From Bacillales bacterium UBA5026 (GTDB taxonomy: Bacteria > Bacillota_I > Bacilli_A > RF39 > UBA660): 64,000 nucleotides of DNA. The position numbers and the translations under genes are program-made. The stretch covers positions 26,597-90,596 of the forward strand of contig DICM01000020.1 of the NCBI GenBank assembly GCA_002416285.1, in the 5' to 3' direction. This document shows, piece after piece, positions 9,781-56,324 of the stretch (positions are counted from its first letter, which is position 1; the number at the start of each line of letters is the position of its first letter). Under the pieces are notes generated by a model. The model worked only from the letters and a program-made list of their open reading frames with translations. It did no database searches and was not told the origin of the DNA.

Positions 9781-11937
9781 TCACCTTTCTATTAAGGATA
9801 GATTTACTCTTCCCCTATCAATATTTATATCATCAACATAGCAATCCACAATATCTCCAACACTAACTACTTCACTTGGATGTTTGATATATTGATTGCT
9901 TAATTTTGAAATGTGGGCTAAACCATCATCGTGCAAGCCAATATCAATAAACGCACCAAAGTCGACAACATTGCGAACAGTACCTTGTAATTTCATACCA
10001 ATCTTCAAATCTTCAATATGTAAAATATCACTTTTTAAAAGAGGTTTAGGCATATCATCACGTGGATCACGATTTGGTTTCTGTAAAGATCCAATCATAT
10101 CCTCTAATGTATAGTGATCTATTCCAATCTTCTTACCTAAATCAGCATTAACCATAGATAATTTTTGCTTGCCATCTTCCGTTATCACATCATTTGCAGC
10201 CATATTTAGTTCTTTTAATAGCCGTTCGGTAGCTTGATAACTTTCTGGGTGAATAGCTGTACGATCTAGAATATTTTCAGCATCTGGAATTCTCAAGAAC
10301 CCAATAGCTTGCTCGTATACTTTATCACTCAAAATCTTTTTCTTTTTAAGTTCTGCTCTAGATTTAAATTTTCCTTGCTGATCACGATACTCTAATATTT
10401 TATCAATATTTCGTTTCGTAATACCAGAAACATATTTTAACAAAGAGGCACTAGCTGTATTTATATTAACACCTACACTATTAACTGCTTTTGAAACGAC
10501 AAAGTCTAAAGACTCAGTCAACTTCTTATTTGAAACATCATGTTGATAAAGTCCAACACCAATACTCTCTGGATCAATTTTTACAAGTTCGGATAATGGA
10601 TCTTGTAGTCTTCTTCCAATACTGATAGCGCTTCTTTCCTCTACATGTAAATCTGGGAACTCTTCTATGGCTAATTTAGAAGCCGAATATACACTCGCAC
10701 CAGCCTCGCTAACAATCAAGTACTCAACTTTTCGTGACGCATCTTTAATAACATCAACAATAAATGCTTCACTTTCTCTAGATGCAGTTCCATTTCCAAT
10801 TGCTATTAAATCAATTTTATAATGCTCAATTAAATCTAACACGATCTTTTTTGCTTCCCCATATTTTTTATGTGGTTCATGAGGGTAGATTACTTTTATT
10901 GCTAGTTTTTTTCCTGTTGGATCAATAACTGCTAACTTGCATCCTGTTCGGTAAGCTGGATCAAATCCAAGCACCATTTTATCTTTCATCGGTGGTTGTA
11001 ATAACAATTTTTCTAAGTTGTTTCCAAAGTTTTCAATTGCAACTAGTTCAGCCTTTTCAGTTAATTCACTTCTGATTTCTCGCTCAATACTTGGATAAAT
11101 CAATCTTTTATAACTGTCAGAAATCGCTTCTTTTACCAAAGGTACTACAAAAGAATCAGCATTTTTAGTAACTTTAGATTCAAGATATTCAATAATAAAA
11201 TCGGTATTGCTTTCAACATTTACAGAAATTACTTTCTCTTTCTCAGCTCGATTAATAGCTAAAATACGATGTGGCTTTACTGCTTTAACTGGCTCCTCAT
11301 AAGAATAATACATTTCATATGTTTTATTTTCGTCCACTGCATCTTTTTTGACAGCAGTTTTTAAAATTCCATTTCGGTAAATTTCTCTTCTGATCCATTT
11401 TCGATAAAAGGCATTATCACTAACCCATTCAGCAATAATATATTTCGCACCTGTTAATGCATCTTCTATTGTTGGAACTTTCTCACTTATAAATGAAGTT
11501 GCCATTTTTTCAAGAGCTCCTTCTACTGGAAAAGACATTATCATTTTAGCAAGTGGTTCTAATCCATTTTGAATCGCATCTGTTGCTTTTGTTTTTTTCT
11601 TTTCTTTATATGGACGATATAAATCTTCCACTTCGACCAATTTTTCTGCGTTCATAATCGATTGCCTTAATTCATCAGTCAAGAGTCCTTTTTCATCAAT
11701 TAATCGAATGACATCTTCTTTTCGTTTTAATAAATTAATTTGATATTCATATACATCACTAATTTTGCGAATTTGTTCTTCGTCTAGATTTCCTGTTACT
11801 TCTTTTCGGTATCTTGCAATAAAAGGAATTGTATTCCCTTCAGACAGTAGTTTTAATGTTGCTTCTATCTGATTTTCTCCAATATTTTCTTTTTTACTAA
11901 TTTCATTAATAATTGTAGTGTTCAAACTATCACTCAT
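9781..11937 (-). CDS. tex: Tex transcription accessory protein (S1 RNA-binding domain)
   Basis: IPFIARYRKEVTGNLDEEQIRKI N-terminal signature, a YqgF/RuvC-like centre, a HhH region and a C-terminal S1 domain (GTVRNVVDFGAFIDIG...GLAHISKLS). Confidence 0.95.
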   Translation of the reverse strand: MSDSLNTTIINEISKKENIGENQIEATLKLLSEGNTIPFIARYRKEVTGNLDEEQIRKISDVYEYQINLLKRKEDVIRLIDEKGLLTDELRQSIMNAEKLVEVEDLYRPYKEKKKTKATDAIQNGLEPLAKMIMSFPVEGALEKMATSFISEKVPTIEDALTGAKYIIAEWVSDNAFYRKWIRREIYRNGILKTAVKKDAVDENKTYEMYYSYEEPVKAVKPHRILAINRAEKEKVISVNVESNTDFIIEYLESKVTKNADSFVVPLVKEAISDSYKRLIYPSIEREIRSELTEKAELVAIENFGNNLEKLLLQPPMKDKMVLGFDPAYRTGCKLAVIDPTGKKLAIKVIYPHEPHKKYGEAKKIVLDLIEHYKIDLIAIGNGTASRESEAFIVDVIKDASRKVEYLIVSEAGASVYSASKLAIEEFPDLHVEERSAISIGRRLQDPLSELVKIDPESIGVGLYQHDVSNKKLTESLDFVVSKAVNSVGVNINTASASLLKYVSGITKRNIDKILEYRDQQGKFKSRAELKKKKILSDKVYEQAIGFLRIPDAENILDRTAIHPESYQATERLLKELNMAANDVITEDGKQKLSMVNADLGKKIGIDHYTLEDMIGSLQKPNRDPRDDMPKPLLKSDILHIEDLKIGMKLQGTVRNVVDFGAFIDIGLHDDGLAHISKLSNQYIKHPSEVVSVGDIVDCYVDDINIDRGRVNLSLIER

Positions 11938-12104: not shown

Positions 12105-12776
12105 TTATGCCCTTCTAGATACATTTCTCTGTTCTGTAAGAGGTGTATTGATATTCTGTAGAGCATTCATGTATGCTGTATAGTAATTAATGATCATATC
12201 TTTATCTAAATCTTTATATATTTGATGCATATAAGCTAACAAAATAGAGAAAATTTCTTGTTCGTAAATCTCTTTTACCATATTAGCATATATATGTTGG
12301 TTCCTCCAAGTTTTATCTTCTTGAGATTGTTTTTCTGTTGTTGTATTTTCATCTGCACTATTAATTGTAGCCTTGCTTTCACTTTGTTGAAATTTAAAAT
12401 TATTGAAAAAAGCATTCTTTTCTTCTCTCTTTTGATCTCTTTTGGCCTGTTCAGAATCACTATATCTTCTATCGTAATCTTCATAGTGATAGTTAGTACT
12501 TTGAGTTTTAGATTCTTCTTTGTCAGATTCTTTTTCTTGAGTTACATTCATACTTTCTTTAGCAGTATATTCATAATAATTTTCTGATATTGTTGTATAA
12601 GCTTGATTAATTGACTGCATGTTCTTTTTAGCTTGCTCAACCTCTTCTGGTCCTCCCTTTTCATGAGCATCTGGATGCCATTCTTTGGCTTTCTTTCTAT
12701 AAGCTTTTTTAATAGAGTCAATGTCAACTTGGGTTGAATCCATTCCTAATTTTTCACAGCATTGTTCAAAACTCAT
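12105..12776 (-). CDS. J-domain (DnaJ-like) protein with low-complexity acidic tail
   Basis: IKKAYRKKAKEWHPDAHEKGG contains the HPD motif of J domains. The remainder is E/K/Q-rich, with no zinc-finger or DnaJ C-terminal domain. Confidence 0.8.
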   Translation of the reverse strand: MSFEQCCEKLGMDSTQVDIDSIKKAYRKKAKEWHPDAHEKGGPEEVEQAKKNMQSINQAYTTISENYYEYTAKESMNVTQEKESDKEESKTQSTNYHYEDYDRRYSDSEQAKRDQKREEKNAFFNNFKFQQSESKATINSADENTTTEKQSQEDKTWRNQHIYANMVKEIYEQEIFSILLAYMHQIYKDLDKDMIINYYTAYMNALQNINTPLTEQRNVSRRA

Positions 12777-12855
12777 TTTTATCCTTCTTTCTACTTATCG
12801 TATTTCTATTTAATCTATAGTCATAGCTTTAATAATTTTTAAATTTCCACATCAA

Positions 12856-15120
12856 TTAAATACGGAAGATTTGTACATAAACAGTTCCGCTGTAATAGTA
12901 ATTTTCTTGCTTACAAGAATTCATAGACTTATAACTATAATAATCATATAATCTATACAAACCAACTCTTAAACCAGGTAAAAATATGGCTTGTCGATTG
13001 AATTTCTTTAAATAATTATCATTACAAATACTAAGATTTATATCTCCTGTATTTGTTCTATTACATGATCCGAAACCTCTAAAGTCCTGAATATCATTTC
13101 CAGCTCCAAAGAGAAAAGCCGTATATCCCCATTTATCCCAAGAACTCCCTGTATCATCATAATCACCAAATCCATCATATCCATCATAAGTTGATGAATA
13201 TGACTGGGTAGTACTTGCGCTCAATACTAATACTTTTCCATTATAGATGGTTCCTGATACAAACTGTTCATATTGCCCACTACAAGCTGGTTTAGCACAT
13301 GTCTTATCATTACTCGCAGTATCTTTTTGCGTATAACAAGTACAACTTCCACTTTTTCCGTTCCCAGATACAAAAGTATATCGACTACTTTGTTTTAATG
13401 CTGTCCACGCTGCATCGCTATTTCTTAAAATACTGGATGTAACTTTTGCACAATCATACATTGCATTGCGGAATTGTTGATATTCAATATAGTTTTTAAA
13501 TAAAGCTGTGTTATTTACAATAGCTTGGAAAGCTGCTGCATCACAAGCTTTGCTTTTTGACCAGTCATAGTTGTCCGGATTATCACAACTTCCTGTATTA
13601 CAACTTTGGGATTGTGTATAACTTCCACAATAGGATCCATCATAATTTGATTTCTTATGAACCGTTCGATATTGTACTCCGCCTCCACATGTCTTACTAC
13701 ATGCTCCCCATGCATCCCACTGATAATCTACTGTTGAGCTACAACAAGTTTGAGTATTGCAACTTTGACTACCTGTTGTCGTCGAACAAACTTTAGAAGT
13801 TTTATTATCTTTTACGGTTTCACTTCTACTTTGGGTTCCTCCACCACATGCCTTGCTACAACTTCCCCAACTTCCATACGAGATAGTTGTATTTCCACTT
13901 CCACACTCATTATAAAGAACGTAATTAATAGAGCGATTTACTTTATTCCCAATCGGATCCATATAAGTAATATAGATTGTTTTGGTCTCCCCATTAATCG
14001 TTCCTCCAACATTCCATGCCTTATTGGTATTATAGATTTCCCATATACCATCTTTCTCATATCCAGTATTACTAATATACATCTGAATAATCGCACCTGA
14101 ATTATCCTTGACATCAGAAACAATAGTAATAGTAGGTACATTATAAGATATATTTGTTGATTTGACTATCAAAGTATTAATTACTGGTGGTTCTAAATCA
14201 ATTTGGCTAATCGTTAAAGTGGATGGACTTGTATCATTAAATCCATCACTCGTAATTGCTTCTATAGATCCATTACTTTCAAATAAAACTTCAAGCTTTG
14301 TTCCTTCTATCTTTATTTTTTGTCCAATTGGAATAACCTGTCCATTCATTTTAGCGACACCACTATATAATCTGATATAATTTTCTACATTGCTCGGATA
14401 GGTAATCACAACTGTTTTCGTTTTTGTCCAACCACTGGGGCTGACACTATAGGATGCGGTTGGTAATTCTTTAGTTACGGCATCAATCGTTTTTTCAGTG
14501 ACTTTATCGATACGATTGGTAACTCTTACATGAACTTCATATTTGCGACTGAATCTTAATGATTCAAACTTATAGGTATCCTCATTACTTTTTATCCAAT
14601 TTTCTTCATTCCCACAATTTTCAATACAATAGGAATATCCAGTAATTCCTGTATCATCATTAGCGGTTGCTTTGATTGTTGCACTTCTAGTAGTTGTATC
14701 AATAACCTCTAAAGATAGTGCCGCATATAAATCTTTTTGATTACTACAGTCACCCTTTGTCACTGTAAGTCCATTTTTAGATCCTGTTGCACAATAATGC
14801 CCATCGGTAAAACTTTTTAAAATATATTCTTCTTTCGTATTTTGAAAGACGAGTCCTTGGACTTTGTCCTTATTCTTAATATCTAAATTTTTAATATTGA
14901 AACCATCTTTAGATAGAGTCTCATTTTTACTTACGTAAAGATTTGCGGCATCAATTGTATTTTTTGCACTAGCAATAAAGGTATTCCTTTTCGCATTTTC
15001 AATTTGGTTTACTACCAATGGTGTTACAACTAAAGTAATAACTGCGATAATTAAAATTACAGCTAAAAGTTCTACTAAAGTAAAACCACGAATTTTATTT
15101 TCCTTACTTTTATTTTTCAT
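12856..15120 (-). CDS. giant type IV pilin-like protein with FN3/Ig-like modules, two thrombospondin type-1 repeats and a Cys-rich C-terminal domain
   Basis: Prepilin signal MKNKSKENKIRG|FTLVELLAVILIIAVI (Glu at +5). Pilin-like Cys loop HYCATGSKNGLTVTKGDC. TSR signatures SWGSCSKACGGGTQSRS and WDAWGACSKTCGGGVQYRT (residues about 405-512, nt 13585-13908). AGGTGG RBS. Confidence 0.8.
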   Translation of the reverse strand: MKNKSKENKIRGFTLVELLAVILIIAVITLVVTPLVVNQIENAKRNTFIASAKNTIDAANLYVSKNETLSKDGFNIKNLDIKNKDKVQGLVFQNTKEEYILKSFTDGHYCATGSKNGLTVTKGDCSNQKDLYAALSLEVIDTTTRSATIKATANDDTGITGYSYCIENCGNEENWIKSNEDTYKFESLRFSRKYEVHVRVTNRIDKVTEKTIDAVTKELPTASYSVSPSGWTKTKTVVITYPSNVENYIRLYSGVAKMNGQVIPIGQKIKIEGTKLEVLFESNGSIEAITSDGFNDTSPSTLTISQIDLEPPVINTLIVKSTNISYNVPTITIVSDVKDNSGAIIQMYISNTGYEKDGIWEIYNTNKAWNVGGTINGETKTIYITYMDPIGNKVNRSINYVLYNECGSGNTTISYGSWGSCSKACGGGTQSRSETVKDNKTSKVCSTTTGSQSCNTQTCCSSTVDYQWDAWGACSKTCGGGVQYRTVHKKSNYDGSYCGSYTQSQSCNTGSCDNPDNYDWSKSKACDAAAFQAIVNNTALFKNYIEYQQFRNAMYDCAKVTSSILRNSDAAWTALKQSSRYTFVSGNGKSGSCTCYTQKDTASNDKTCAKPACSGQYEQFVSGTIYNGKVLVLSASTTQSYSSTYDGYDGFGDYDDTGSSWDKWGYTAFLFGAGNDIQDFRGFGSCNRTNTGDINLSICNDNYLKKFNRQAIFLPGLRVGLYRLYDYYSYKSMNSCKQENYYYSGTVYVQIFRI

Positions 15121-15162
15121 ATTACCACCTATCTTACTATTATATTCTTATTATTATATTTT

Positions 15163-15191
15163 ATTTTACAGTAGTTATCCTTTATAGTCAA
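15163..15191 (-). promoter_or_regulatory. sigma-A type promoter of downstream TSR-pilin gene
   Basis: Minus strand reads TTGACT (15186-15191)-17 nt-TAAAAT (15163-15168). The same architecture is conserved upstream of the paralog. Confidence 0.7.
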
Positions 15192-15291
15192 ATAAAAGGC
15201 ATTCAAATTTATTTAATAAAATTATTTTAATCAGAAATTTTTATACTAACAAAAATAATAATAATCTAATGGTTTTTATTTTATCAGTATG

Positions 15292-15324
15292 AAATAAAAA
15301 AGATTGAATTTTCTATTCAATCTT
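15292..15324 (-). terminator. intrinsic terminator after upstream TSR-pilin gene
   Basis: 10-bp perfect stem AAGATTGAAT/ATTCAATCTT (15300-15309/15315-15324), followed by TTTTATTT on the minus strand. Confidence 0.85.
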
Positions 15325-15332
15325 TTCCTTAA

Positions 15333-17588
15333 TTAAATAATAAATATTTGCACATAAACAGTAGCATTATAATAGTGATTTTCAATCTTAGACCCAGACT
15401 TTCCGTTATCATAATCATAGTACCAATATAGTCCAACTCTTAGATTAGGTAAAAATAAGGATTGCCTGTTATATCGTTCTGCCCAAGTTCCACTACAAAC
15501 ATTTAGATCAAGATTTCCGTTAGTAGTACGATTACATGAACCCCATCCACGATAAGAATCGACTTTATAAGAAGATCCGAGTAAGAAATAAGATCGGTAA
15601 GTATAATCTACTGATTTTGTTTCGTTATCTGCTTTTCCAAATCCATCATCATCATACTTTGTACCTAAGTAGCGGTCTGTACTAGCACTCAACACTAAAA
15701 CTCTTCCACCATAAATAATTCCAGAAGAAAACTGATCATAAGCTCCAGCACAAGCTGGCTTTTGACAATTTTTATACGCACTACTAGAATTACTGTTGTA
15801 TTTACAAGTACAACTTGTAGCACTACCATTCCCTGATACTAACGAATAACGACTACTTTGCTTTAGCGCATTCCATGCTCCATCAGTATTCCTTAAAATA
15901 TTAGCTGTTACATTTGCACAATCATACATCGCATTTCGAAATTGTTGATGTTCGATATAATTTTTAAACAGAGTGGTATTATTAGCTATCGCTTGAAAAG
16001 CTGCTGCATCACAAGCTTTACTCTTTGACCAATCATAGTTGTCAGGATTATCACAGCTTCCTGTATTACAACTTTGTGATTGTGTATAGCTTCCACAATA
16101 GGATCCATCATAATTTGATTTCTTATGAACCGTTCGATATTGTACTCCGCCTCCACATATCTTACTACATGCTCCCCATGCATCCCACTGATAATCTACT
16201 GTTGAACTACAGCAAGTTTGGGTATTACAGCTTTGCGTACCTGTCGATGTAGAACAAACTTTAGAAGTTTTATTATCTTTCACAGTCTCACTTCTACTTT
16301 GTGTTCCTCCGCCGCAAGCTTTACTACAACTTCCCCAACTTCCGTAAGACGTGGTTGTATTTCCACTTCCACATTCGTTATAAAGAACATAATTAACAGA
16401 ACGATTTACTTTATTTCCAATCGGATCCATATAGGTAATATAAACCGTTTTTGTCTCTCCATTAATAGTTCCACCGACGTTCCACGCTTTATTAGTATTA
16501 TAAATCTCCCAAATACCATCTTTCTCATAACCAGTATTGCTAATATACATTTGTATTATCGCACCTGAATTATCTTTTACATCAGAGACAATGGTAGTAG
16601 TAGGAACATTATAAGATGCATTTGTTGATTTAACAGTTAAAGTATTAATAACCGGTGGCTCTAGATCAATTTGACTAATGGTCAAGGTTGATGGACTTGT
16701 GTCATTGAAACCATCACTAGTAATTGCTTCTATAGAACCATTCGTTTCAAATAAAACTTCAAGTGTTGTTCCCTCTATTCGTATCTTTTCTCCAATTGGA
16801 ATAACCTGTCCATTCATTTTCGCAACACCACTATATAATCTTATATAGTTTTCTACATTGCTCGGATAGGTAATGACAACTGTTTTTGTTTTTGTCCAAC
16901 CACTGGGGCTGACACTATAGGATGCAGTTGGTAACTCTTTTGTCACTGCATCAATCGTTTTTTCAGTGACCTTATCAATACGATTCGTTACTCTTACGTG
17001 AACTTCATATTTACGACTGAACTTTAAAGACTCAAATTTATAGATATCCTCATTACTTTTTATCCAATTAGCTTCATTCCCACAGTCTTCAATACAATAG
17101 GAATATCCGGTAATCCCGGTATCATCGCTAGCTGTTGCTTTTATTGTCGCACTTCTCGTAGTTGTATCAAGCACTTCTAAAGATAGTGCTGCATATAAAT
17201 CTGTTTGATCACTACAGTTTCCCTTTGTTACCAAAAGTCCATTCTTAGACCCTGTCGCACAATAATGTCCATCTGTAAAGCTTTTTAAAATATATTCTTC
17301 TTTCGTATTTTGAAATACAAGCCCTTGCACTTTATCTTTATTCTTAATATCTAAATTTTTAATATTGAAGCCATCTTCAGGTAATGACGCATTCTTACTT
17401 ACATAAAGATTTGCGGCATCAATAGTATTCTTCGCACTGGCAATAAATGTATTCTTTTTCGCATTTTCAATTTGGTTTAATACTAATGGTGTTACAACTA
17501 AAGCAATTACTGCAATAATTAAAATTACAGCTAAAAGCTCTACCAAAGTAAAACCTAAAATTCTCTTTCTCATAATTTTCTTTCTCAT
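15333..17588 (-). CDS. giant type IV pilin-like protein, paralog of 12856..15120 (two TSP1 repeats, divergent C-terminal domain)
   Basis: The ORF track begins at 17645, but that extension overlaps the promoter. ATG at 17588 gives MRKKIMRKRILG|FTLVELLAVILIIAVI, a 12-aa leader of the same length as the paralog, behind an AGGTGA RBS. TSRs at nt 16053-16376. Confidence 0.8.
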   Translation of the reverse strand: MRKKIMRKRILGFTLVELLAVILIIAVIALVVTPLVLNQIENAKKNTFIASAKNTIDAANLYVSKNASLPEDGFNIKNLDIKNKDKVQGLVFQNTKEEYILKSFTDGHYCATGSKNGLLVTKGNCSDQTDLYAALSLEVLDTTTRSATIKATASDDTGITGYSYCIEDCGNEANWIKSNEDIYKFESLKFSRKYEVHVRVTNRIDKVTEKTIDAVTKELPTASYSVSPSGWTKTKTVVITYPSNVENYIRLYSGVAKMNGQVIPIGEKIRIEGTTLEVLFETNGSIEAITSDGFNDTSPSTLTISQIDLEPPVINTLTVKSTNASYNVPTTTIVSDVKDNSGAIIQMYISNTGYEKDGIWEIYNTNKAWNVGGTINGETKTVYITYMDPIGNKVNRSVNYVLYNECGSGNTTTSYGSWGSCSKACGGGTQSRSETVKDNKTSKVCSTSTGTQSCNTQTCCSSTVDYQWDAWGACSKICGGGVQYRTVHKKSNYDGSYCGSYTQSQSCNTGSCDNPDNYDWSKSKACDAAAFQAIANNTTLFKNYIEHQQFRNAMYDCANVTANILRNTDGAWNALKQSSRYSLVSGNGSATSCTCKYNSNSSSAYKNCQKPACAGAYDQFSSGIIYGGRVLVLSASTDRYLGTKYDDDGFGKADNETKSVDYTYRSYFLLGSSYKVDSYRGWGSCNRTTNGNLDLNVCSGTWAERYNRQSLFLPNLRVGLYWYYDYDNGKSGSKIENHYYNATVYVQIFII

Positions 17589-17616
17589 ATCTTCACCTAT
17601 CTTACTATTACATTTT

Positions 17617-17645
17617 ATTTTACAGTAGTTACCATTTATAGTCAA
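17617..17645 (-). promoter_or_regulatory. sigma-A type promoter of upstream TSR-pilin gene
   Basis: Minus strand reads TTGACT (17640-17645)-17 nt-TAAAAT (17617-17622). It sits directly after the polA terminator. Confidence 0.7.
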
Positions 17646-17647
17646 AC

Positions 17648-17668
17648 AAAAAAGTGGATTAATCCACT
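17648..17668 (-). terminator. intrinsic terminator of polA (overlaps stop codon)
   Basis: AGTGGA-TTAA-TCCACT hairpin (17653-17668), followed by TTTTT on the minus strand. Confidence 0.65.
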
Positions 17669-30110: not shown

Positions 30111-30566
30111 TTATTCACCGATTGTTGAAAAATTTTCTACAACTTTAGCAGTTTTACCATCATATTCAACTTTATAACCGTTGATTGTTAATTGAGCTAA
30201 CTTAATTTCACCACCGTCAACAACTACTTTTCCACCATCGACTGGATTTTTACCTTTGAAATCAACTGTAATTGTAATGGCTTTATCATCAGTAGTTTTT
30301 TCTGTATCTGCAGTAAGTGTTTTTCCTTCTAATGATGTTGTATAAGTATCATCTACAATTTTAGCTTCACTAGCATTAGTAAGCATATTTTTTAAAGTTG
30401 ATTTTTCAACAGAATCAATATACCCGTATGCACTACTTTCAGCAGCACCTTTCTTAGCACTATCAATAACTCCTAAAATCATTGGTGTAGCAATTAACGC
30501 AATGATTGCAAGAATAACGATAACAGCTAGTAATTCAATTAATGTAAAACCTTTTGTATTTTTCAT
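30111..30566 (-). CDS. type IV pilin-like protein (short, major-pilin-like), copy 1
   Basis: MKNTKG|FTLIELLAVIVILAIIALIATPMILGVIDSAKKGAAESSAYGY. This is a prepilin cleavage/methylation motif with Glu at +5. GGAGG RBS at 30576-30580. Confidence 0.9.
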   Translation of the reverse strand: MKNTKGFTLIELLAVIVILAIIALIATPMILGVIDSAKKGAAESSAYGYIDSVEKSTLKNMLTNASEAKIVDDTYTTSLEGKTLTADTEKTTDDKAITITVDFKGKNPVDGGKVVVDGGEIKLAQLTINGYKVEYDGKTAKVVENFSTIGE

Positions 30567-30597
30567 GTATAACTTCCTCCTATTTTTCTACAGTATT

Positions 30598-30626
30598 AAT
30601 ATACCATAGGTTCTTCGCCCAGTCAA
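30598..30626 (-). promoter_or_regulatory. sigma-A type promoter of pilin gene 1
   Basis: Minus strand reads TTGACT (30621-30626)-17 nt-TATATT (30598-30603). The TTCGACAAAAT motif lies just upstream (30631-30641). Confidence 0.7.
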
Positions 30627-30776
30627 TATAATTTTGTCGAATTTTAGAATATACTACATTAAAATTGAATTAAATTTCATATTTTTTTTAGAAGGAAATA
30701 AGCTGTTAGCTCGTAGATAATATTTTTAATTCTTAACAGGTAAAATATCTATCAAAAAAAAAGACCTTTCGATCTT

Positions 30777-31232
30777 TTATCCTTCAATTGCAGAAAAGTT
30801 TTCTACAACTTTAGCAGTTTTACCATCATATTCAACTTTGTAACCGTTGATTGTTAATTGTGCTAATTTAATTTCTCCACCATCAACAACTACTTTTCCA
30901 CCATTCTCTGGATTTTTACCTTTGAAATCAACTTTGATTTTAACTGGTGCAGCTGGTGTACCAACCGCTTTTGTACCTGTTAGTGTTTTTCCAGCATCAC
31001 TGATTGTGTAAGTATCATCTACGATTTTAGCTTCTGAAGCATTAGCTAGCATATTTTTTAAAGTTGATTTTTCTACTGCATCAACATACCCATATGCACT
31101 ACTTTCAGAAGCACCTTTCTTAGCACTATCGATTACTCCTAAAATCATTGGTGTTGCAATTAACGCAATGATTGCAAGAATAACGATAACAGCAAGTAAT
31201 TCAATTAATGTAAAACCTTTTGTATTTTTCAT
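30777..31232 (-). CDS. type IV pilin-like protein, copy 2
   Basis: Same length (151 aa) as copy 1. It is near-identical over residues 1-75 and from about 101 to 151, but differs over residues about 76-100. Confidence 0.9.
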   Translation of the reverse strand: MKNTKGFTLIELLAVIVILAIIALIATPMILGVIDSAKKGASESSAYGYVDAVEKSTLKNMLANASEAKIVDDTYTISDAGKTLTGTKAVGTPAAPVKIKVDFKGKNPENGGKVVVDGGEIKLAQLTINGYKVEYDGKTAKVVENFSAIEG

Positions 31233-31262
31233 GTATAACTTCCTCCTATCTTATACAATAAT

Positions 31263-31291
31263 AATATATCACAGCTAAATTACACAGTCAA
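31263..31291 (-). promoter_or_regulatory. sigma-A type promoter of pilin gene 2
   Basis: Minus strand reads TTGACT (31286-31291)-17 nt-TATATT (31263-31268), the same hexamers as copy 1. Confidence 0.7.
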
Positions 31292-31296
31292 TATGA

Positions 31297-31336
31297 TTTT
31301 GTCGAAATAATGTAAATTTTGTCGAAATAATGTAAA
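31297..31336. repeat. perfect 20-bp tandem duplication (ttttgtcgaaataatgtaaa x2)
   Basis: 31297-31316 is identical to 31317-31336. It sits immediately upstream of the -35 of pilin gene 2. Each unit contains the TTCGACAAAA motif (minus strand) also found upstream of pilin gene 1. Confidence 0.9.
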
Positions 31337-31364
31337 TTATGGAATATTTAATTTTTTATTAAAA

Positions 31365-31400
31365 TAAAAGAAAAATAGAAGTTATTTCTTCATAACTTCT
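31365..31400 (-). terminator. intrinsic terminator after pilin gene 3
   Basis: 9-bp stem AGAAGTTAT/ATAACTTCT (31377-31385/31392-31400) overlaps the TAG stop. TTTTTCTTTTATTTT follows on the minus strand. Confidence 0.8.
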
Positions 31401-31839
31401 ATCTTGCGGCTGTTGCTTTTTTACCATCATATGTAACAACATAACCATTAATCGTCAATGTAGCTGCAGTAATCTCTCCACCAGCAATTGTAACGGAGTC
31501 ATCTACACCTTTTGGACTATCTCCTTTGAATGATACATTGATTGTTACTGGGGTAGTTCCATCTGCTTCCATCTTTGTGTTAGCAGTAAGAACTTTACCA
31601 TCACTACTAATTGAATAAGTATCATCAACTAATGTATTACCATTATTATCAATCATATCTTTTAAACTTGATTTTTCAACTGAATCGACATACCCGTAGG
31701 CACTACTTTCAGCAGCACCTCTTTTAGCACTATCAATAACTCCTAAAATCATTGGTGTTGCAATTAAGGCAATGATCGCTAAAATAACGATTACAGCTAG
31801 TAATTCAATTAAGGTAAAACCTTTTCTATTTGCTTTCAT
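31399..31839 (-). CDS. type IV pilin-like protein, copy 3 (more divergent)
   Basis: MKANRKG|FTLIELLAVIVILAIIALIATPMILGVIDSAKRGAAESSAYGY. The globular part is about 50% similar to copies 1 and 2. AGGAGGTAG RBS. Confidence 0.9.
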   Translation of the reverse strand: MKANRKGFTLIELLAVIVILAIIALIATPMILGVIDSAKRGAAESSAYGYVDSVEKSSLKDMIDNNGNTLVDDTYSISSDGKVLTANTKMEADGTTPVTINVSFKGDSPKGVDDSVTIAGGEITAATLTINGYVVTYDGKKATAAR

Positions 31840-48616: not shown

Positions 48617-50655
48617 TTATATATATCTTGTAACAATTTCTAATATCTTATTTACTTCTTGCATCAATACATTATAGTTTTGCTTGATATATTCATTATC
48701 ATTTTCTTTACTTGCAATCTCATGATTGAATGCAGTTTCTGCTAAAGTTTTAAATCCTAAATATTTAGAATCACTCTTTAAGGCGTGTACCTCAATTGCA
48801 TAGTTTGCCATATCACCAGTTTTCTTAAATGAAGTTAATTTGGCAATTCTCATATCGATTGCATCTAAGAAATCTTTCAAGGTATCATTATACATATTGA
48901 TATCTCCTAAAATCTGAATTCCTTGCGCAACATCAATTCCGTTTTCTTTTAAGTAATCAATATTCCCCTTCGTAACTACAGTAACTGGGGTTACAAATTC
49001 TGTTGTAGGCTCTTTTGCAGTATTGCTAGCCTCTTCTTTGTTCACTGTTTGATTGGTATCTACATTTTTATCTAAGAATAGATGAATAATGCGATCAAGT
49101 TCAAACTTATCGATTGGTTTAGAAATATATTCATCAAACCCCTCCCCTAAGTATTTTTCTCTTGATCCAGCAATCGCATTTGCTGTCAAAGCAATAATTG
49201 GTGTTTTAATTCCCATATCTTTTAATTTATGCATTGTTTCCGTACCTGTTGTTACTGGCATCATATCATCCATAAATATTAGGTCATAATTAGATCCAGA
49301 TTCTATTTTTTCAATACTTGACTCACCACTTAAAACTTCTTCAATCGTAAAGTTATATGGTTGTAAAAACTTAGAAGCAATTTTAATATTAATCCTATTA
49401 TCATCGACGATTAAGACTCTTTTTCTTGCATAATTTGAAAAACAAATTGTATTCTCTTTTGATATTGTTGGTTTTAAATATTTTGTCAAAACTTTGATCA
49501 ATTCTTCTTTTTCAATCGGCTTTGCCAAGTAATCCTCAAAACCTTCCTTCATGTAATGTTCTCTCATACCCGTGATAGCATTAGCGGTTAAAGCAATAAC
49601 CGGAATACTAAAACCGTCAATCTCCTTTAAATGTTTTAATGCTTCAACACCTTTCATAACAGGCATCATATCATCCATCAAAATGAGATCATAATGTTCA
49701 TGTTTCTTGATTCGTTCAATTGCTTCAACACCACTGTCTACTAAAACAGTATTTAGTTCATAACGTTTTAAAATCTTATCAGCAACTTTTAAATTTAATT
49801 TATTATCATCAACTATTAAAACTCTTGAATTAGAAAATTTTAAATTTTCTTCCTCTTCATTTATGACTCTTAATTCTTCTCCACCATGCAATTGAAGAAT
49901 TTTCTGTTTCAGATAAATGGTAAATTTAGACCCTTCACCATATACACTTTGTACAACTATCTTTCCACCCATCATTTCAGCAAGTGACTTGGTAATGGCA
50001 AGACCAAGGCCAGTTCCTTCTAACGTTGTATTTTTATCCTCATCTAATCGGTTAAACTTCGTAAATAAGCTATCAATTTTTTCTGGCTTAATTCCTCGAC
50101 CGGTATCTTCAATCGAGATAACAAGAGAACATTCATCATTCTCATTAATACAGTTTACAGTAAAAATAATTTTCCCTTTTTCAGTATATTTGACGGCATT
50201 GGTTAATATATTCGTTATAATTTGTTTAATTTTTCCCAGATCTCCATACATAACAGCTGGAATATCAGGAGCAAAAGAGGTAATAAATTCAATTGGTTTT
50301 TCTGCGAGTCTCGGTCCAATTAGTTTTGAAAGATTCTCTAAATTAGGGCGTAATTCATATTTCATATTAACGATTTCCATTTTATTTGCTTCAATCTTTG
50401 AAATATCTAGAATACCATTGACAATTTCCAACAAATTTTGCGAAGCCATGATAATATCGGCTGCATCCTTTTGGATTGCTTCCATCGAAGTTTCTGTTTT
50501 AATGCATTCCGAGAATCCCACAATTGCATTTAATGGAGTACGAATCTCGTGGGACATACTAGATAGGAACTCTGATTTTGCACGATTTGCCTTCTCTGCA
50601 TGTTCTTTTGCAAGCTCTAATTCTGAAAGCATTTTCATGTCCGGATTTTCTATGG
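48617..50655 (-). repeat. about 2.0-kb high-identity segment shared with 53511..55565
   Basis: The cytoplasmic parts of the two kinases (from [18 protein letters not shown] to the C-terminus) are nearly identical in protein and very similar in DNA. The membrane sensor parts (50656-51286 versus 55566-56210) are divergent. Confidence 0.85.
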
Positions 50656-51286
50656 TATGATACATCAGTACAACAATAAAACTTATTAGTGGTGACATTA
50701 ATAAATATTCCGGATTAGTCATTTGTAGATAAATAATCGGAGCTACCATAGTAATAAATGTAACGATTGGAATATTCTTTTTCTTTTTCATTTTTTTTAC
50801 ATCTCTAATGAGATAGGATATCCAAATTAGAATTACAATTCCAGCAACTAAATACAAAAAATTTGTATTAGCACCGTATGCATATATAATATTATCCTGT
50901 TTGTAATAATAAACAGGTAAAATGTAGTTTACTACGGTAGCAATAATATACATTATAGAGAAACACATTAGTTTCCGTTTGCCAATTAATGATAATTTTG
51001 AAGAATTCTCTGAAATAAACATATACGTTGACAATAGATATATAATAGTCAATAAATACGTATAGTAAAGCTTTAGCACAAACCATCTAACAATACTTGA
51101 ATCATCAATATACAAACTTGCATAAACTCCTATCAAATCCATTACTACACCAAATATAGCAAAAAGGAGAATATATTTATAGATTGTGGTTTCAAATGAA
51201 ACAATTTTCTTTTTTGAAAAATATAAAATAGCAATTAGTATAAGATAACACAAACTTGCAACCATTAATAATACATTTGCATTCAT
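48617..51286 (-). CDS. hybrid sensor histidine kinase: polytopic N-terminal sensor, HisKA, HATPase_c, two receiver domains, C-terminal Hpt
   Basis: About 6-7 TM helices. H-box [13 protein letters not shown] boxes ([20 protein letters not shown]). Two REC domains (LIVDDN...LILMDDMMP; LIVDDN...LIFMDDMMP). Hpt ([16 protein letters not shown]). Confidence 0.9.
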
Positions 51287-51342
51287 AACATCCCTACCTT
51301 ACTAATAAGTATAACATGTATATTTATAATTGTGTAGCATAA

Positions 51343-51376
51343 ATAAAAAAAATAAGAATCATTAATGATTCTTATT
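51343..51376 (-). terminator. strong intrinsic terminator after HAD/acyltransferase gene 1
   Basis: 12-bp palindrome arms AATAAGAATCAT/ATGATTCTTATT (51351-51376), followed by TTTTTTTT on the minus strand. Confidence 0.9.
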
Positions 51377-51402
51377 AGCAAACTAGAATATGATAGAGTT
51401 TT

Positions 51403-52935
51403 TTATAAAGATCTTATATTTTGTGATAAAACCTTTACTTTATTAACACTTTCAGCATCATCTTTCTTTGTATTAATCTTTACTAATTCTTCTATTATAG
51501 TATTAATTCCGTTAATCGCATTATTAACAGAAGTAGTCCAACGTTGAGCAATTTCACTTGCTTTTAATCCTTCTGTATAAATAGGTTTTAAAAAGGCAAT
51601 GATAACTCTATTTGGAATATCAACTTCTTTTGGTACCCATACCATAGCGATTGGACGAACAACACCTTTTCCATCTTCAGCAATTTTAAAAGCTTGATTT
51701 GATTTCAAAGGTAATATATTTCCATTTTCATCTGGTTTTCGATTAATGGTTCCTTCTGGGTAAATAGCAGTTGCAGATCCTGCTGCCAAATAATCATTTA
51801 TATATTTAAAAGTTTGAAGATTAGTTATCATATAATCAGTGTCTTCTGGTCGTGCAATAGGAAGTGCTCCTGCTGATTTTACTAAGAAAGTAGTAGCATA
51901 AGTTCCAAGATTATTTCCTACTGTACCAAATATATTCTCATTATTTTCAAACATTCTTTTTAATGCAGCAAAATGTGTTGGATGTTTTAGCAGAGCCATA
52001 GTTATTAGTGGATCCTTTATATTTCTATGATTACTTACAAACACATCCGGTCCTTTTTCTTTTGGAATATTTTCTTCACCAATAATCAAAGGATTTAAAT
52101 CATATACTTTTGAATATATTTTCGCACTAACCCGAATTAATTTATAGAAATTTTCTGTATAAAATTTTTGATACATTTTTAAACTTTTAATTTTACGTTT
52201 GTTTTTTTCTTTTTGGGTTAATTCTCTTTTTGGTTTCTTTACAAGCTTATTCTTCTCAGCATTATTAACAACTGCCATTACAGATTCGTGTGTAAAAGGA
52301 ACTCTAACTACTCTTTCATTTTCAAATTCTTCTAAAACATTATGCAGTGTCTCTACACAAACAGGGATTGTATCAATATCACTTAAATCGTTTATTACCT
52401 CTATAGTATCTTCAAAAACAAAAGACGGTTTTAAATCTGCAATTATTTGTTTTTTATCCTCTACCTTTTCTACTAAAACCAGTTGTTTGTATTTAATATC
52501 ATTTAGTTTTAATTGTAGCTTTGTAAGTAAAGGAACAGCTACTTTTCTCAGAAAAACATCTTTTATTGTCTCTTCCTCTTTAGTTTTAATACCACGTAAA
52601 GAGACAAATGTTATTTTATATCCTCTACTAGTTAAATCATTTATAATGTTTGTCGCATCAGGACGTAAAGGTTGAAAATTATATTTGAGAAACATTTTAG
52701 CATTATATGAAGCAATTGCTTTTTTACATTTTAAAGTTAATTCTTCTTCACTAAGAGTACTATCCTTTGACTTAAAAAATTCATATAGTCCAAAAATTTC
52801 TGCGACATTTTTACCATTTGGATTTACAACTTTCGCATCCATTCCATATTTCTTTTTTAAATATGCTGGGGCTTCTTTTAAAATAAACCCAGTTTCATCA
52901 ATAATTGTATCATCAATATCAAAAACAATATTCAT
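51403..52935 (-). CDS. fusion protein: N-terminal HAD-like hydrolase + C-terminal PlsC/LPLAT-type acyltransferase
   Basis: HAD motif I FDIDDTIID. Acyltransferase H(x)4D box VSNHRNIKD and IYPEGTINR box. GAGGGGGA RBS. Confidence 0.8.
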   Translation of the reverse strand: MNIVFDIDDTIIDETGFILKEAPAYLKKKYGMDAKVVNPNGKNVAEIFGLYEFFKSKDSTLSEEELTLKCKKAIASYNAKMFLKYNFQPLRPDATNIINDLTSRGYKITFVSLRGIKTKEEETIKDVFLRKVAVPLLTKLQLKLNDIKYKQLVLVEKVEDKKQIIADLKPSFVFEDTIEVINDLSDIDTIPVCVETLHNVLEEFENERVVRVPFTHESVMAVVNNAEKNKLVKKPKRELTQKEKNKRKIKSLKMYQKFYTENFYKLIRVSAKIYSKVYDLNPLIIGEENIPKEKGPDVFVSNHRNIKDPLITMALLKHPTHFAALKRMFENNENIFGTVGNNLGTYATTFLVKSAGALPIARPEDTDYMITNLQTFKYINDYLAAGSATAIYPEGTINRKPDENGNILPLKSNQAFKIAEDGKGVVRPIAMVWVPKEVDIPNRVIIAFLKPIYTEGLKASEIAQRWTTSVNNAINGINTIIEELVKINTKKDDAESVNKVKVLSQNIRSL

Positions 52936-52961
52936 AATCTTCCCCCTCTTTTATGGCTTGT

Positions 52962-52989
52962 ATTATACACATAAATTTTATTTTGTCAA
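52962..52989 (-). promoter_or_regulatory. sigma-A type promoter (conserved block A, copy 1)
   Basis: Minus strand reads TTGACA (52984-52989)-16 nt-TATAAT (52962-52967). An identical arrangement is at 59769-59796. Confidence 0.75.
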
Positions 52990-53188
52990 ATTTTACCATT
53001 ATTTTTCTAAAAAGTCTTAAAAATAATTGATTTATATAAAAAAGTAAAGAACTTCATAAACTCTTTCGATGGGTTTGGTGAACACTTTTAACAAGTATTT
53101 GTTATAAGAAGAAGCTAAAATTTATAATAGTCTTATCTATTGTAATTATAACACAAACTTTCTTTAAAAGACTAGTTTAAAGAAAAAA

Positions 53189-53389
53189 TTAAAGAAAAAA
53201 AGAGTTTTTATACTCTTTTGGTAAATATTGTGTAAAATAATTTAATGAATAAGTATTCTCTCTTATATTTAAAGCAAATGTCAATTCATGGTACTCATAA
53301 AGAATTTCTGTAACAACACTTTCTATATGATTAAAATGTATAATATTTACCAAAATTATAAATAAAGTAATAAATAATATATCAACCAT
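53189..53389 (-). CDS. doubtful small membrane ORF (66 aa from ATG 53389)
   Basis: AAGGGGAG RBS and one TM (MVDILFITLFIILVNII). However, its last 17 or so codons read through a sequence block, including a terminator hairpin, that is non-coding in the paralogous copy at 59975-60016. Confidence 0.3.
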   Translation of the reverse strand: MVDILFITLFIILVNIIHFNHIESVVTEILYEYHELTFALNIRENTYSLNYFTQYLPKEYKNSFFL

Positions 53390-53510
53390 AATTCTCCCCT
53401 TAGAAATTTGTTTCTGATAATATATCAAAATTCCTAGTTTGGCAAGAAAAGGTGATAAAAATTGGTATTTATTTTAATAAAAAAAGGACATAAAAGTCCT
53501 CTTTATACAA

Positions 53511-56210
53511 CTAAATATATCTTGTAACAATTTCTAATACGTTATTTACTTCTTGCATCAATACATGATAATTTTGTTTGATATATTCAATGTCATTTTC
53601 TTTACTTGCAATTTCATGATTAAACGCTGTTTCTGCTAAAGTTTTAAAGCCTAAATATTTAGCATCACTCTTTAATGCATGTACCTCGATTGCATAGTTG
53701 GCCATATCACCAGTTTTTCTAAATGATGTTAACTTAGCAATTCTCATATCAATCGCTGCTAAAAATTCTTTTAAAGTATCATTGTACATATTAATATCAC
53801 CCAGAATTTGTATACCTTGTCTGATATCAATTCCATTTTCTTTTAAATAATCTACATTCCCCTTCGTAACTACAGTAATTGGAGTTACAAATCCTGTTGT
53901 AGATTCTTTTACAGTTTTGCTTGGCTCTTCTTTTGTTACTGTTTGATTGGTATCTACATTTTTATCCAAGAATAAATGAATAATACGATCAAGTTCAAAC
54001 TTGTCGATTGGTTTAGAAATGTATTCATCAAAACCTTCTCCTAAGTATTTTTCTCTTGATCCAGCAATGGCATTTGCTGTTAAAGCAATAATTGGTGTTT
54101 TTATTCCTATATCTTTTAACTTATGCATTGTTTCTGTACCAGTTGTTACAGGCATCATATCATCCATGAATATTAGGTCATAATTAGATCCAGATTCTAT
54201 TTTTTCAATACTCGCCTCCCCACTTAAAACTTCTTCGATGATAAAGTTATATGGTTGTAAAAAATTAGAAGCAATCTTGATATTAATTTTGTTATCATCT
54301 ACCACTAAAACCTTATGACCAGAGTAATCGGAAAAATTAATCTCGACATTTTTTGCATCCTCTGCACTAGAAGTTGGTTTTAAATATTTCTTTAGCACTT
54401 TAATTAATTCTTCTTTTTCAATTGGTTTTGCTAAATAATCCTCAAAGCCTGCTTTCATATAATGTTCTCTCATACCTGTAATAGCATTAGCCGTTAGTGC
54501 AATAACGGGAATATTAAAGCCATTAATTTCTTTTAACCGTTGTAATGCTTCAACACCTTTCATGATAGGCATCATATCATCCATCAAAATCAAATCATAG
54601 CGTTCATTTCTTTTAATTCGCTCAATTGCTTCAATTCCACTGTCTACTAGAACAGTATTCAATTCATAACGTTTTAAAATCTTATCAGCTACTTTTAAGT
54701 TAAGTTTATTATCATCTACTATTAAGACTCTTGAACTTGAAAATTTTAAATTTTCTTCCTCATCAGTTATGGTTCTTAATTCTTCTCCACCATGTAATTG
54801 AAGAATCTTTTGTTTTAGATAAACGGTAAATTTAGAGCCTTGTCCATAGACACTTTGGACAACAATCTTACCACCCATCATTTCTGCTAAAGATTTTGTA
54901 ATAGCCAATCCTAATCCAGTACCCTCTAACGTTGTATTTCGATCCTCATCTAAACGATTAAACTTTGTAAAAAGACTATCAATTTTTTCAGGTTTGATAC
55001 CACGTCCTGTATCTTCAATCGAGATAACAAGAGAGCACTCATCATTTTCATTGATACAATTTACAGAAAAAATAATTTTTCCCTTTTCGGTATATTTTAC
55101 TGCATTAGTTAATATATTGGTGATGATTTGTTTAATTTTACCCAAATCCCCATACATAACTGCCGGAATATCAGGAGCAAAAGACGTAATAAACTCAATT
55201 GGTTTCTCTGCAAGTCTAGGTCCAATTAATTTTGAAAGATTTTCTAAATTAGGAAGTAACTCATATTTCATGTTAACAATTTCCATTTTGTTTGCTTCAA
55301 TCTTTGAAATATCTAGAATACCATTAACAATTTCCAGCAAATTTTGCGAAGCCATTATAATATCTTCCGCATCTTTGCGTACAGCCTGCATAGAGGCTTC
55401 CGTTTTAATACATTCTGAAAATCCTACAATAGCATTTAATGGGGTACGTATTTCATGAGACATACTAGATAGGAACTCTGATTTAGCACGATTGGCTTTT
55501 TCTGCATGTTCTTTTGCTAATTCTAATTCTGAAAGCATTTTCATATCTGGATTTTCAATTGTAAAATACATTAAAAAAGTGATAAAGGTTTCCATAGATG
55601 TCATTAATAAAATTCCGGGATTAATCTTTTGAATCGCAATAACTATTATTCCTATAATCATGTAAGCAAAAATAGGAACACATTTTATTCTTTTAATATT
55701 TTGAAAATTTCTTACCATAACAATAATCCAAGAAAGAATACATAAACCACTAACCAAATACAATACGTTCGAGCTAGGACCATAGGAATATACTATATTA
55801 TTTTCATGAAAATAATATAGCGGAAGCACCATAATTAAAATCAAAACAATCAAATATAATATCACAAAAATAATATGCTTAGATAAATATTTCAATACTG
55901 ATTCATTCACATCATAATTTTCTTTTTTCTTTGATATTATAAAAATATAAATTGTAATAGTAAATATCCATGTCAATAAATATAACAAATATAATTTAGT
56001 AACAATAAAATTTAATATTGGATATTGTTCCATATGAATAATAGTAAAAATACTGGATATATCTAAAATCAAGCCAAATGCATTTGTAATCATCAAAATT
56101 CTATAAATTTTATTTTCTAACAAATTTAATCTTTTTTTAAAGAAAAAAACACAGATAAGTAAAACAATATAAAACAAACTACAAATTTGAAAATATACAC
56201 TACTAAACAT
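53511..56210 (-). CDS. hybrid sensor histidine kinase, paralog of 48617..51286 with a different membrane sensor domain
   Basis: Same HisKA-HATPase-REC-REC-Hpt layout and near-identical cytoplasmic sequence. The N-terminal 220 aa or so (6-7 TM) show only weak similarity to the paralog. Confidence 0.9.
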
Positions 56211-56324
56211 ACCAACATCTCCATTCTTTACTATTAATAGTATAACATAAAAAAAAGAACTATCAAACGATAATTCTTATAATATTGATGATTTTATAAG
56301 TTAACGAGTATTGTGCACTATATA

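Follow-up and report, generated by a model that had tools for sequence, protein, structure and literature searches.

In the thin pilus of R64 (IncI1), the minor pilin and adhesin PilV joins a constant N-terminal part to alternative C-termini that set receptor specificity, and the C-terminus is chosen by Rci-mediated inversion at sfx repeats inside one gene. In the Neisseria pilE/pilS system, a conserved N-terminus and a variable C-terminus are combined with conversion between linked copies, and the pilS copies are silent, having neither a promoter nor a 5′ end. Modular pilins are widespread, and PilB and PilC of Streptococcus sanguinis are the studied cases (PMC8179133). PilB, with a von Willebrand factor type A module, and PilC, with a lectin module, are modular minor pilins borne on the pilus (Raynaud et al., 2021, PMC8179133; Shahin et al., 2023, PMC9934059). 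The architecture IPR012902–TSP1–TSP1 appears as one listing in Dataset S1 of the former study (Raynaud et al., 2021, PMC8179133), and a text search of the literature for pilins with thrombospondin type-1 repeats (TSRs) found no paper. Here we describe a tandem pair of genes for such proteins, genes A and B, in a 64,000-nucleotide (nt) stretch of DNA (the window) from Bacillales bacterium UBA5026, an uncultured gut member of the Bacilli.

Gene A lies directly downstream of polA and is followed by gene B, a J-domain gene (12105-12776), and Tex (9781-11937). The two products share 82% protein identity overall (BLASTP), and each consists of a pilin head, a stalk, and a C-terminal tip, which is of the alpha type in gene A and of the beta type in gene B. 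With a probability of roughly 70%, we interpret the interval bounded by polA on one side and by the J-domain gene and Tex on the other as a two-slot site for modular type IV pilin-like adhesins with exchangeable tips. It resembles R64 PilV in its constant N-terminal part and alternative C-terminal segments, but its alternatives, unlike those of the shufflon, are full genes or alleles that homologous recombination exchanges. It shares with pilE/pilS the conserved N-terminus, the variable C-terminus, and gene conversion between linked copies, but unlike pilS both copies are complete and have promoter-like sites, and the effect of conversion is to homogenise the stalk and not to diversify the tip. 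Like PilB and PilC, the two proteins have a class III signal peptide, a small pilin module, C-terminally grafted modules, and a proposed role in tip adhesion. Unlike PilB and PilC, they are much longer and multi-module, are encoded outside a pil operon, end in a module with no database signature, and have tip cassettes that are exchanged between strains.

The exchange was seen between strains of the same species. The 90% cluster of gene B contained five further proteins (P0156-P0160) that carry the stalk of gene A residue for residue, joined to a third, beta-type tip. In six contigs (L087-L092) from at least five samples, a beta-prime tip is joined to the gene A stalk, and slot 2 is occupied by another gene. 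In one of them, L090, the identity of the flanks to the window is 98.2% for the stretch that starts upstream of polA and reaches into gene A, and 98.6% for the one that opens at window position 12845, immediately 3′ of the gene B stop codon, and includes the J-domain gene and Tex. Gene A and the slot-1 allele of L090 share 99.1% nucleotide identity over the first 1300 nt and 95-100% up to nt ~1780, from which point to the stop codon the identity is 42-65%. The junction falls at codon ~593, after ...SGNGSAT, which in the structural model is early in the beta-sandwich subdomain, shortly after the end of the helix bundle. The block that varies between the haplotypes comprises the tip of gene A, the intergenic region, and the whole of gene B, and at least three different tips are found on one stalk. 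Slot 2 of the other haplotype holds P0015, an 854-residue TSR-pilin with a different C-terminal module and a stalk that is ~68% identical at the nucleotide level. The P0015 gene (L090 10327-12891) has an extra copy of the Ig-like region, and its unrelated C-terminal module ends in ...RLDYLKYSPLV; the end of P0007 is similar.

A second line of evidence came from a sister species, whose PolA is 78% identical to that of the window. Only two other close relatives, P0003 (746 aa) and P0004 (744 aa), were present in the protein database, both from this species, in which the polA-Tex interval has a single pilin gene and lacks the J-domain gene. P0003 and P0004 are allelic forms of this gene: identity is ~95% over the flanks and the first ~1650 nt, drops to 61-75% in the last ~560 nt, and is again 93-97% directly 3′ of the stop codon. 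Stalk identities are 94% between genes A and B, 97% between P0003 and P0004, and 76% across species. The tip of gene A is 79% identical to that of P0004 and the tip of gene B 66% identical to that of P0003, versus 49-51% between the tips of genes A and B. The gene B tip groups with P0003, P0156, and P0121 (58-74% identity) and is 47-62% identical to alpha tips; P0121 carries its beta-type tip on an unrelated pilin stalk. Among the informative residues of positions 1-582, 100 group the sequences by genome and none by tip type, whereas at positions 583-754 one groups by genome and 21 by tip type (Fisher p = 1e-22 for the contrast). Since the tips group across species (1:21), the alpha and beta types predate the species split. 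Synonymous divergence (dS) of the stalk is ~0.70 between genes A and B, 0.21 between P0003 and P0004, and 1.6-1.95 between species; that of the tip is ~1.1-1.3 in five of six pairs and 2.67 for gene B and P0004. These comparisons document, at the level of sequence, an exchangeable tip cassette with a sharp, reused junction, strain haplotypes, and trans-species tip types, a pattern in which recombination, not accelerated divergence, has joined genome-specific stalks to two ancient tip types.

The products of both genes begin with the class III signal peptide of type IV pilins, with leaders MKNKSKENKIRG and MRKKIMRKRILG, each directly followed by FTLVELL, so that Gly stands at -1, Phe at +1, and Glu at +5. 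The two proteins scored 24.4 and 21.8 bits against Pfam N_methyl (gathering score, 21.2) and 21.2 and 17.6 against TIGR02532 (cut-off, 16.3), and in a search of PDB sequences the N-terminus matched S. sanguinis PilE1 (8pfb; E value, 0.0026). The full-length AlphaFold2 (AF2) model predicts a head with the pilin fold, an extended alpha1 helix (residues 15-64) packed on an antiparallel beta-sheet (strands within 88-122), with a predicted local distance difference test (pLDDT) score of 77-90. It is followed by three beta-sandwich domains (134-401; pLDDT above 90) that match fibronectin type III (FnIII) arrays and the extender regions of giant adhesins (6xi3, SiiE). The two TSRs scored 47-50 bits against TSP1_spondin (gathering score, 41) and 35-40 bits against TSP_1 (gathering score, 21.6), and the CSxxCGxG core is present in both. 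The pair matched the TSRs of human thrombospondin-1 (3r6b/1lsl) with E values of 4e-6 to 1.5e-4 in the PDB sequence search; the window repeats and human TSR2-3 (1lsl/3r6b) agree in the CSxxCGxG core, the W/R motif, and the arrangement of the cysteines. Unlike the human repeats, those of the window belong to a bacterial exported protein, are fused to a pilin, and lie within the conserved stalk, not at the variable end. With an N-terminal pilin module and domains foreign to type IV pili, the arrangement by which modular pilins are defined (Raynaud et al., 2021), the products of genes A and B are modular type IV pilin-like proteins.

The same genetics could nevertheless serve proteins that are not pilus subunits, the pilin-like N-terminus being a membrane anchor or part of a Com-type or type II secretion-like pseudopilus, with the stalk displaying the tip from the cell surface. 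A subunit of 750 residues is excluded as a major pilin, the genes lie singly amid housekeeping genes both in the window and on another contig, the best partial NCBIfam matches (ComGC, GspG, and ComGD) fall far short of their cut-offs, and no assembly machinery lies in the 64-kb window. This explanation is nonetheless rather unlikely in our judgment, given the canonical signal peptide, the alpha1-plus-beta-sheet fold predicted for the head, and the presence 13 kb away of three conventional pilin genes (146-151 aa). The characterised modular pilins of a monoderm, S. sanguinis PilB and PilC, are also borne on pili (PMC8179133).

The C-terminal 241 residues, modelled with 17 homologues, were predicted with a pLDDT of 91.3 and a predicted template modelling score of 0.87 as a six-helix bundle followed by a beta-sandwich. 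The full-length AF2 model gives no information on the tip (pLDDT below 50), as no tip homologues were in its alignment. The helical part (516-582) goes with the stalk, and the exchanged unit is the terminal beta-sandwich of ~160-170 residues. Type-specific substitutions cluster in module residues ~126-172 (e.g., WDKWGxT vs VDYTYRS), and the core strands VLVLSAST, LRVGLY, and TVYVQIF are invariant. The module is rare: an exhaustive HMMER search found 22 clusters among 1.84 billion representatives and was more useful than a word-indexed search with the tip profile, which returned only four short fragments. It is C-terminal in all full-length matches, typically ending in ...VYVQIFKI or a close variant, and the carriers whose N-terminus is present are pilin-like proteins. 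Searches of PHROGs, Pfam, and PDB sequences with the tip gave no match, and the module is a new, previously undescribed domain family with no Pfam or PDB relative. The best fold matches, both weak, were to a Clostridioides difficile phage receptor-binding protein (RBP), CDHS-1 RBP (7qlr; E value, 1.3e-3; template modelling score [TM], 0.24), and to a phage tail fibre (A0A8S5MZY8, BFVD; E value, 7e-5; TM, 0.41). As in the exchange of tail-fibre and RBP tips among phages, a conserved shaft carries a distal domain that is horizontally exchanged at a sharp junction; here, by contrast, the fold matches of the module are weak, it is unrelated in sequence to PHROGs, and it lies in a chromosomal housekeeping context instead of a prophage.

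A previous interpretation from the sequence alone (the sequence-only reading) had proposed a tandem duplication including the promoter, with the C-terminus "swapped or divergent" and the tips differing through diversifying selection after the duplication. The duplication holds, as both the overall protein identity and an upstream block indicate (15146-15197 vs 17600-17651; 90% identity over 52 nt, with TTGACT-17-TAAAAT in each). A distinct, folded C-terminal module was also recovered by structure prediction, and the divergence was as non-uniform as had been supposed. Residues 36-550 of genes A and B share 94% protein and 87% nucleotide identity; codons 1-580 share 92% and 87%, with nonsynonymous divergence (dN) of 0.04, dS of 0.71, and a dN/dS ratio (omega) of 0.06; and codons 580 to the end share 51% and 61% (dN, 0.445; dS, 1.23; omega, 0.36). 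The identity declines gradually from residue ~555, where the break had been placed with a tail of ~200 residues, but the phylogenetic break is at ~583-596, and the exchanged unit is accordingly shorter. Comparison of alleles across strains, which had been recommended, confirmed that the tip varies on a common stalk, but the change is abrupt at one codon and does not reflect divergence in situ. Of the two alternatives offered for the C-terminus, therefore, "swapped" stands, and divergence in place fails on the age of the tip types.

Under divergence in situ, a recent tandem duplication would have been followed by rapid change of the C-terminal ~200 residues, by diversifying or relaxed selection, while the stalk remained constrained. 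The adjacency of the genes and the inclusion of the promoter in the repeat fit this account, as does an omega that is higher in the tip (0.36) than in the stalk (0.04-0.06). However, each tip is nearer to the tip of another species (79%, 66%) than to that of its neighbour (49%), the cross-species grouping is backed by 21 of the 23 informative tip sites while all 100 of the 100 stalk sites group within genomes, and omega between tips of the same type is 0.10 (alpha) and 0.22 (beta). Within the species, moreover, sequences that are 99% identical upstream switch abruptly to another tip at a single codon, and divergence in situ cannot account for this. The duplication is also not recent, because the synonymous divergence of the stalks is already substantial. 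We consider this account very improbable. Positive selection was likewise discarded as a demonstrated feature, since omega stays below 0.4 throughout (0.10-0.36 across the tip) and dS of the tip is near saturation, which limits the test; the dN/dS values per region, which had been recommended as a check, do not point to diversifying selection. The tips behave as long-lived types that are transferred by recombination, with purifying selection acting on each.

Gene conversion between the copies was found in the second TSR. A tract of gene A differs from gene B at no more than one position in 116 nt, compared with a background of 11.9% (p = 0.0004, codon shuffling). In a 60-nt segment within the tract (gene A nt 1421-1480), the identity of gene A is 0.87 to S1, its own allele in the other strains, and 0.98 to gene B. 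Gene A departs here from its own allele and matches gene B, and must therefore have received the tract from gene B. The event is recent and gives direct evidence for the process by which the stalks stay alike. The joining of two strain alleles of a single gene by the metagenome assembler is scarcely credible even though the source is a metagenome-assembled genome and the sister species does have alternative tips as alleles of a single gene, because the stalks differ at a dS of 0.70 (12-13% of nt), far above the 1-2% by which the flanks diverge between strains, the spacer of 212 nt that joins the copies is unique and has a terminator-like hairpin and a promoter-like site of its own, the two-slot arrangement was independently assembled in six other contigs, and the conversion tract implies both copies in one genome.

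Two other known mechanisms of C-terminal variation were considered and rejected. For a shufflon or inversion mechanism, neither significant inverted repeats nor a recombinase were found: inverted repeats were at most 24 nt long and 79-89% complementary, with none at the segment borders, and a Pfam scan of neighbouring genes (6.3-59.8 kb) brought up no recombinase. A silent-cassette mechanism of the pilE/pilS type is at odds with both copies being full-length with a promoter-like site, a ribosome-binding site, and a start codon.

Table 1. Positions of the features described, in window coordinates.
Feature	Position	Strand	Basis or remarks
Gene A (slot 1)	15333..17588	-	751 aa, ATG with ribosome-binding site; class III signal peptide and pilin head, three FnIII/Ig-like domains, two TSRs, helix bundle, alpha-type tip; open reading frame (ORF) call, Pfam
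Gene B (slot 2)	12856..15120	-	754 aa; architecture as gene A, beta-type tip; ORF call, BLASTP, Pfam, structure models
Promoter-like site of gene A, TTGACT-17-TAAAAT	17617..17645	-	Kept in copy B and in the sister-species upstream region
Promoter-like site of gene B, TTGACT-17-TAAAAT	15163..15191	-	Inside the duplicated 52-nt block 15146-15197; repeat D5
Putative intrinsic terminator 3′ of the gene A stop codon, AU-rich 14-bp hairpin and U-run	15296..15328	-	-14.1 kcal/mol, z = -3.5
Class III signal peptide of gene A	17484-17588	-	Equivalent of that of gene B
Class III signal peptide of gene B	15016..15120	-	12-aa leader, G/FTLVELL, Glu5, hydrophobic alpha1-N; Pfam, NCBIfam
Two TSRs of gene A	16053-16358	-	Equivalent of those of gene B
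Two TSRs of gene B (aa 411-512)	13585..13890	-	Pfam; PDB match
Alpha tip cassette of gene A (codons ~593-751)	15333..15812	-	Beta-sandwich subdomain ending VYVQIFII; break vs L090, P0004 match
Beta tip cassette of gene B (codons ~593-754)	12856..13344	-	Ending VYVQIFRI; groups with P0003, P0156, P0121
Strain-variable block (gene A tip, intergenic region, whole gene B)	12846..15812	-	Comparison with the L090 haplotype
Conversion tract in TSR2 of gene A (codons 462-500), recipient	16089..16205	-	At most one difference vs gene B over 116 nt
Matching TSR2 tract of gene B, donor	13621..13737	-	Compared with gene A and the strain allele
Three tandem small type IV pilin genes (151, 151, 146 aa)	30111-31839	-	Between polC and valS

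The limits of the genes and their signals were revised in several points (Table 1). The sequence-only reading was right that two genes are present, but both lie on the minus strand, and position 17645 is not the real start of gene A, which begins at an ATG downstream of an AGGTG ribosome-binding site. The 770-residue ORF that reaches 17645 opens at a TTG inside the -35 box of gene A and adds 19 residues (17589-17645; MTINGNYCKIKCNSKIGE/DD...). The same extended start occurs in database entries, including P0160, and is probably mis-called. The extended start masks the prepilin motif in some precomputed Pfam annotations (N_methyl is absent for P0002). The repeat unit, ~2.47 kb, runs from ~6 nt upstream of the -35 box to ~17 nt beyond the stop codon. 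The promoter sites are called because they are conserved between the copies and with the sister species, not because of the consensus scan, which gave no excess (34 sites in the region vs 32.6 in shuffles). A promoter-like site for each gene and a terminator-like hairpin after gene A fit the earlier view of two independent transcription units. What had been called a strong terminator does have a hairpin and a U-run, but it is better described as a plausible intrinsic terminator; it was missed by the GC-requiring consensus terminator scan because its stem has too few G-C pairs. The cysteines and the terminal TVYVQIF(R/I)I, which had been reported as retained, are indeed kept, except that gene B has one extra cysteine, C736 (25 vs 24). 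A palindromic hairpin, AGTGGATTAATCCACT, at 17653-17668 has T-runs on both sides and a terminator score on both strands; it ends polA 8 nt before the -35 box of gene A. At the other end of the locus, the J-domain gene directly downstream of gene B (minus strand) encodes a 223-residue protein with an acidic, low-complexity C-terminal half, and no obvious terminator separates the two genes. Both haplotypes of the window species have the J-domain gene; the sister species lacks it, and there Tex directly adjoins the pilin gene.

The two proteins belong to a larger family. Among the 120 best relatives, 58 combine the prepilin motif and 1-11 TSRs with diverse C-termini, and the 20 closest have the head and stalk in common. 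Further TSR-pilin paralogues were found on another contig of the same genome, DAMCXE010000001.1 (L085), which carries two, of 779 and 864 residues. Between these (15379-16533, 13228-14193) are genes for a DsbD_TM-thioredoxin/redoxin fusion protein and a PrsA-like rotamase. The 24-25 cysteines of the TSR-pilins are unusual for exported proteins of an anaerobic monoderm, and an extracytoplasmic thiol-disulfide system may be dedicated to them. No relatives were obtained when GTDB genomes were scanned with the TSR-pilin alignment or from a scan of JGI metagenomes, and a GTDB scan anchored on polA (80 loci; best PolA identity, 68%) found no TSR pilin downstream of polA. The nearest GTDB relatives, with PolA identities of at most 68%, are labelled as uncultured Bacilli, Tenericutes, or Candidatus Pelethosoma. 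In distant gut Bacilli, pilin-like genes for 418-570 residues lie immediately upstream of polA (L008 8086-9744, L021 8241-9497, and L024 8157-9869) and match in the pilin head only; pilin genes beside polA may be a recurring arrangement in the lineage. The three small pilins of the window have identical first ~40 residues (KGFTLIELLAVIVILAIIALIATPMILGVIDSAK), a variable region at ~aa 60-110, and conserved C-termini, and could be the major pilins of a filament bearing the TSR-pilins. Tandem small genes of the major-pilin type are also found in S. sanguinis (PilE1/PilE2). A second tandem duplication in the window (48617-57863, minus strand) contains genes for a hybrid histidine kinase/response regulator and an acyltransferase, twice: 889 and 510 residues, then 899 and 512.

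Several points weigh against a two-slot site for exchangeable pilus adhesins. All the locus data come from metagenome assemblies, and the haplotype with an alpha and a beta tip in tandem has been seen in only one genome so far. The 64-kb window contains no gene for an assembly ATPase, a platform protein, or a prepilin peptidase. No dN/dS above 1 was seen anywhere in the gene pair, and the phage RBP-like fold matches are weak and have no sequence support. The four lineages fit either a two-gene array that was ancestral and underwent concerted evolution and loss or an allelic dimorphism of which a second allele was later captured in tandem.

For the preferred two-slot interpretation, the following course can be envisaged. 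The prepilin leader and pilin head would insert the proteins into a type IV filament, and a rigid stalk in which three FnIII/Ig-like domains are followed by two disulfide-rich TSRs, continued by the six-helix bundle, would present the terminal beta-sandwich of ~160-170 residues. The sequences show that homologous recombination, with the conserved stalk upstream and the conserved flank downstream as its arms, swaps tips, and whole downstream genes, between strains, and that gene conversion between the copies keeps the stalks alike. At least two ancient tip types, alpha and beta, have persisted in two species, and the window strain, alone so far, has one of each in tandem, each with its own promoter. 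In function, the proteins would cap pili that may consist of the three small pilins, and a choice of tips would allow different ligands to be bound in the animal gut. A receptor-binding function of the tips is plausible, and the proteins may be pilus-tip adhesins whose tips set ligand specificity and whose tip types are maintained by balancing selection. More tentatively, and with considerable doubt, uncultured gut Bacilli may possess a family of pilus-tip adhesins in which a eukaryote-like TSR stalk bears a "...VYVQIFKI" cap with a phage RBP-like fold, traded between strains, species, and stalks. Such caps could be a counterpart of phage host-range modules, setting which surface is bound, with the tip types kept by balancing selection.

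Modular pilins are thought to explain many functions of simple type IV filaments, and few have been studied. This locus exposes a whole unannotated family of TSR-pilins in uncultured Bacilli of animal guts. It also provides a natural experiment, with at least three tips on one stalk and a junction placed within a few codons, and this junction defines which 160-170 residues form the candidate ligand-binding unit. Eukaryote-like TSRs on the pilus of a commensal would be a plausible handle on binding to host matrix or glycans.

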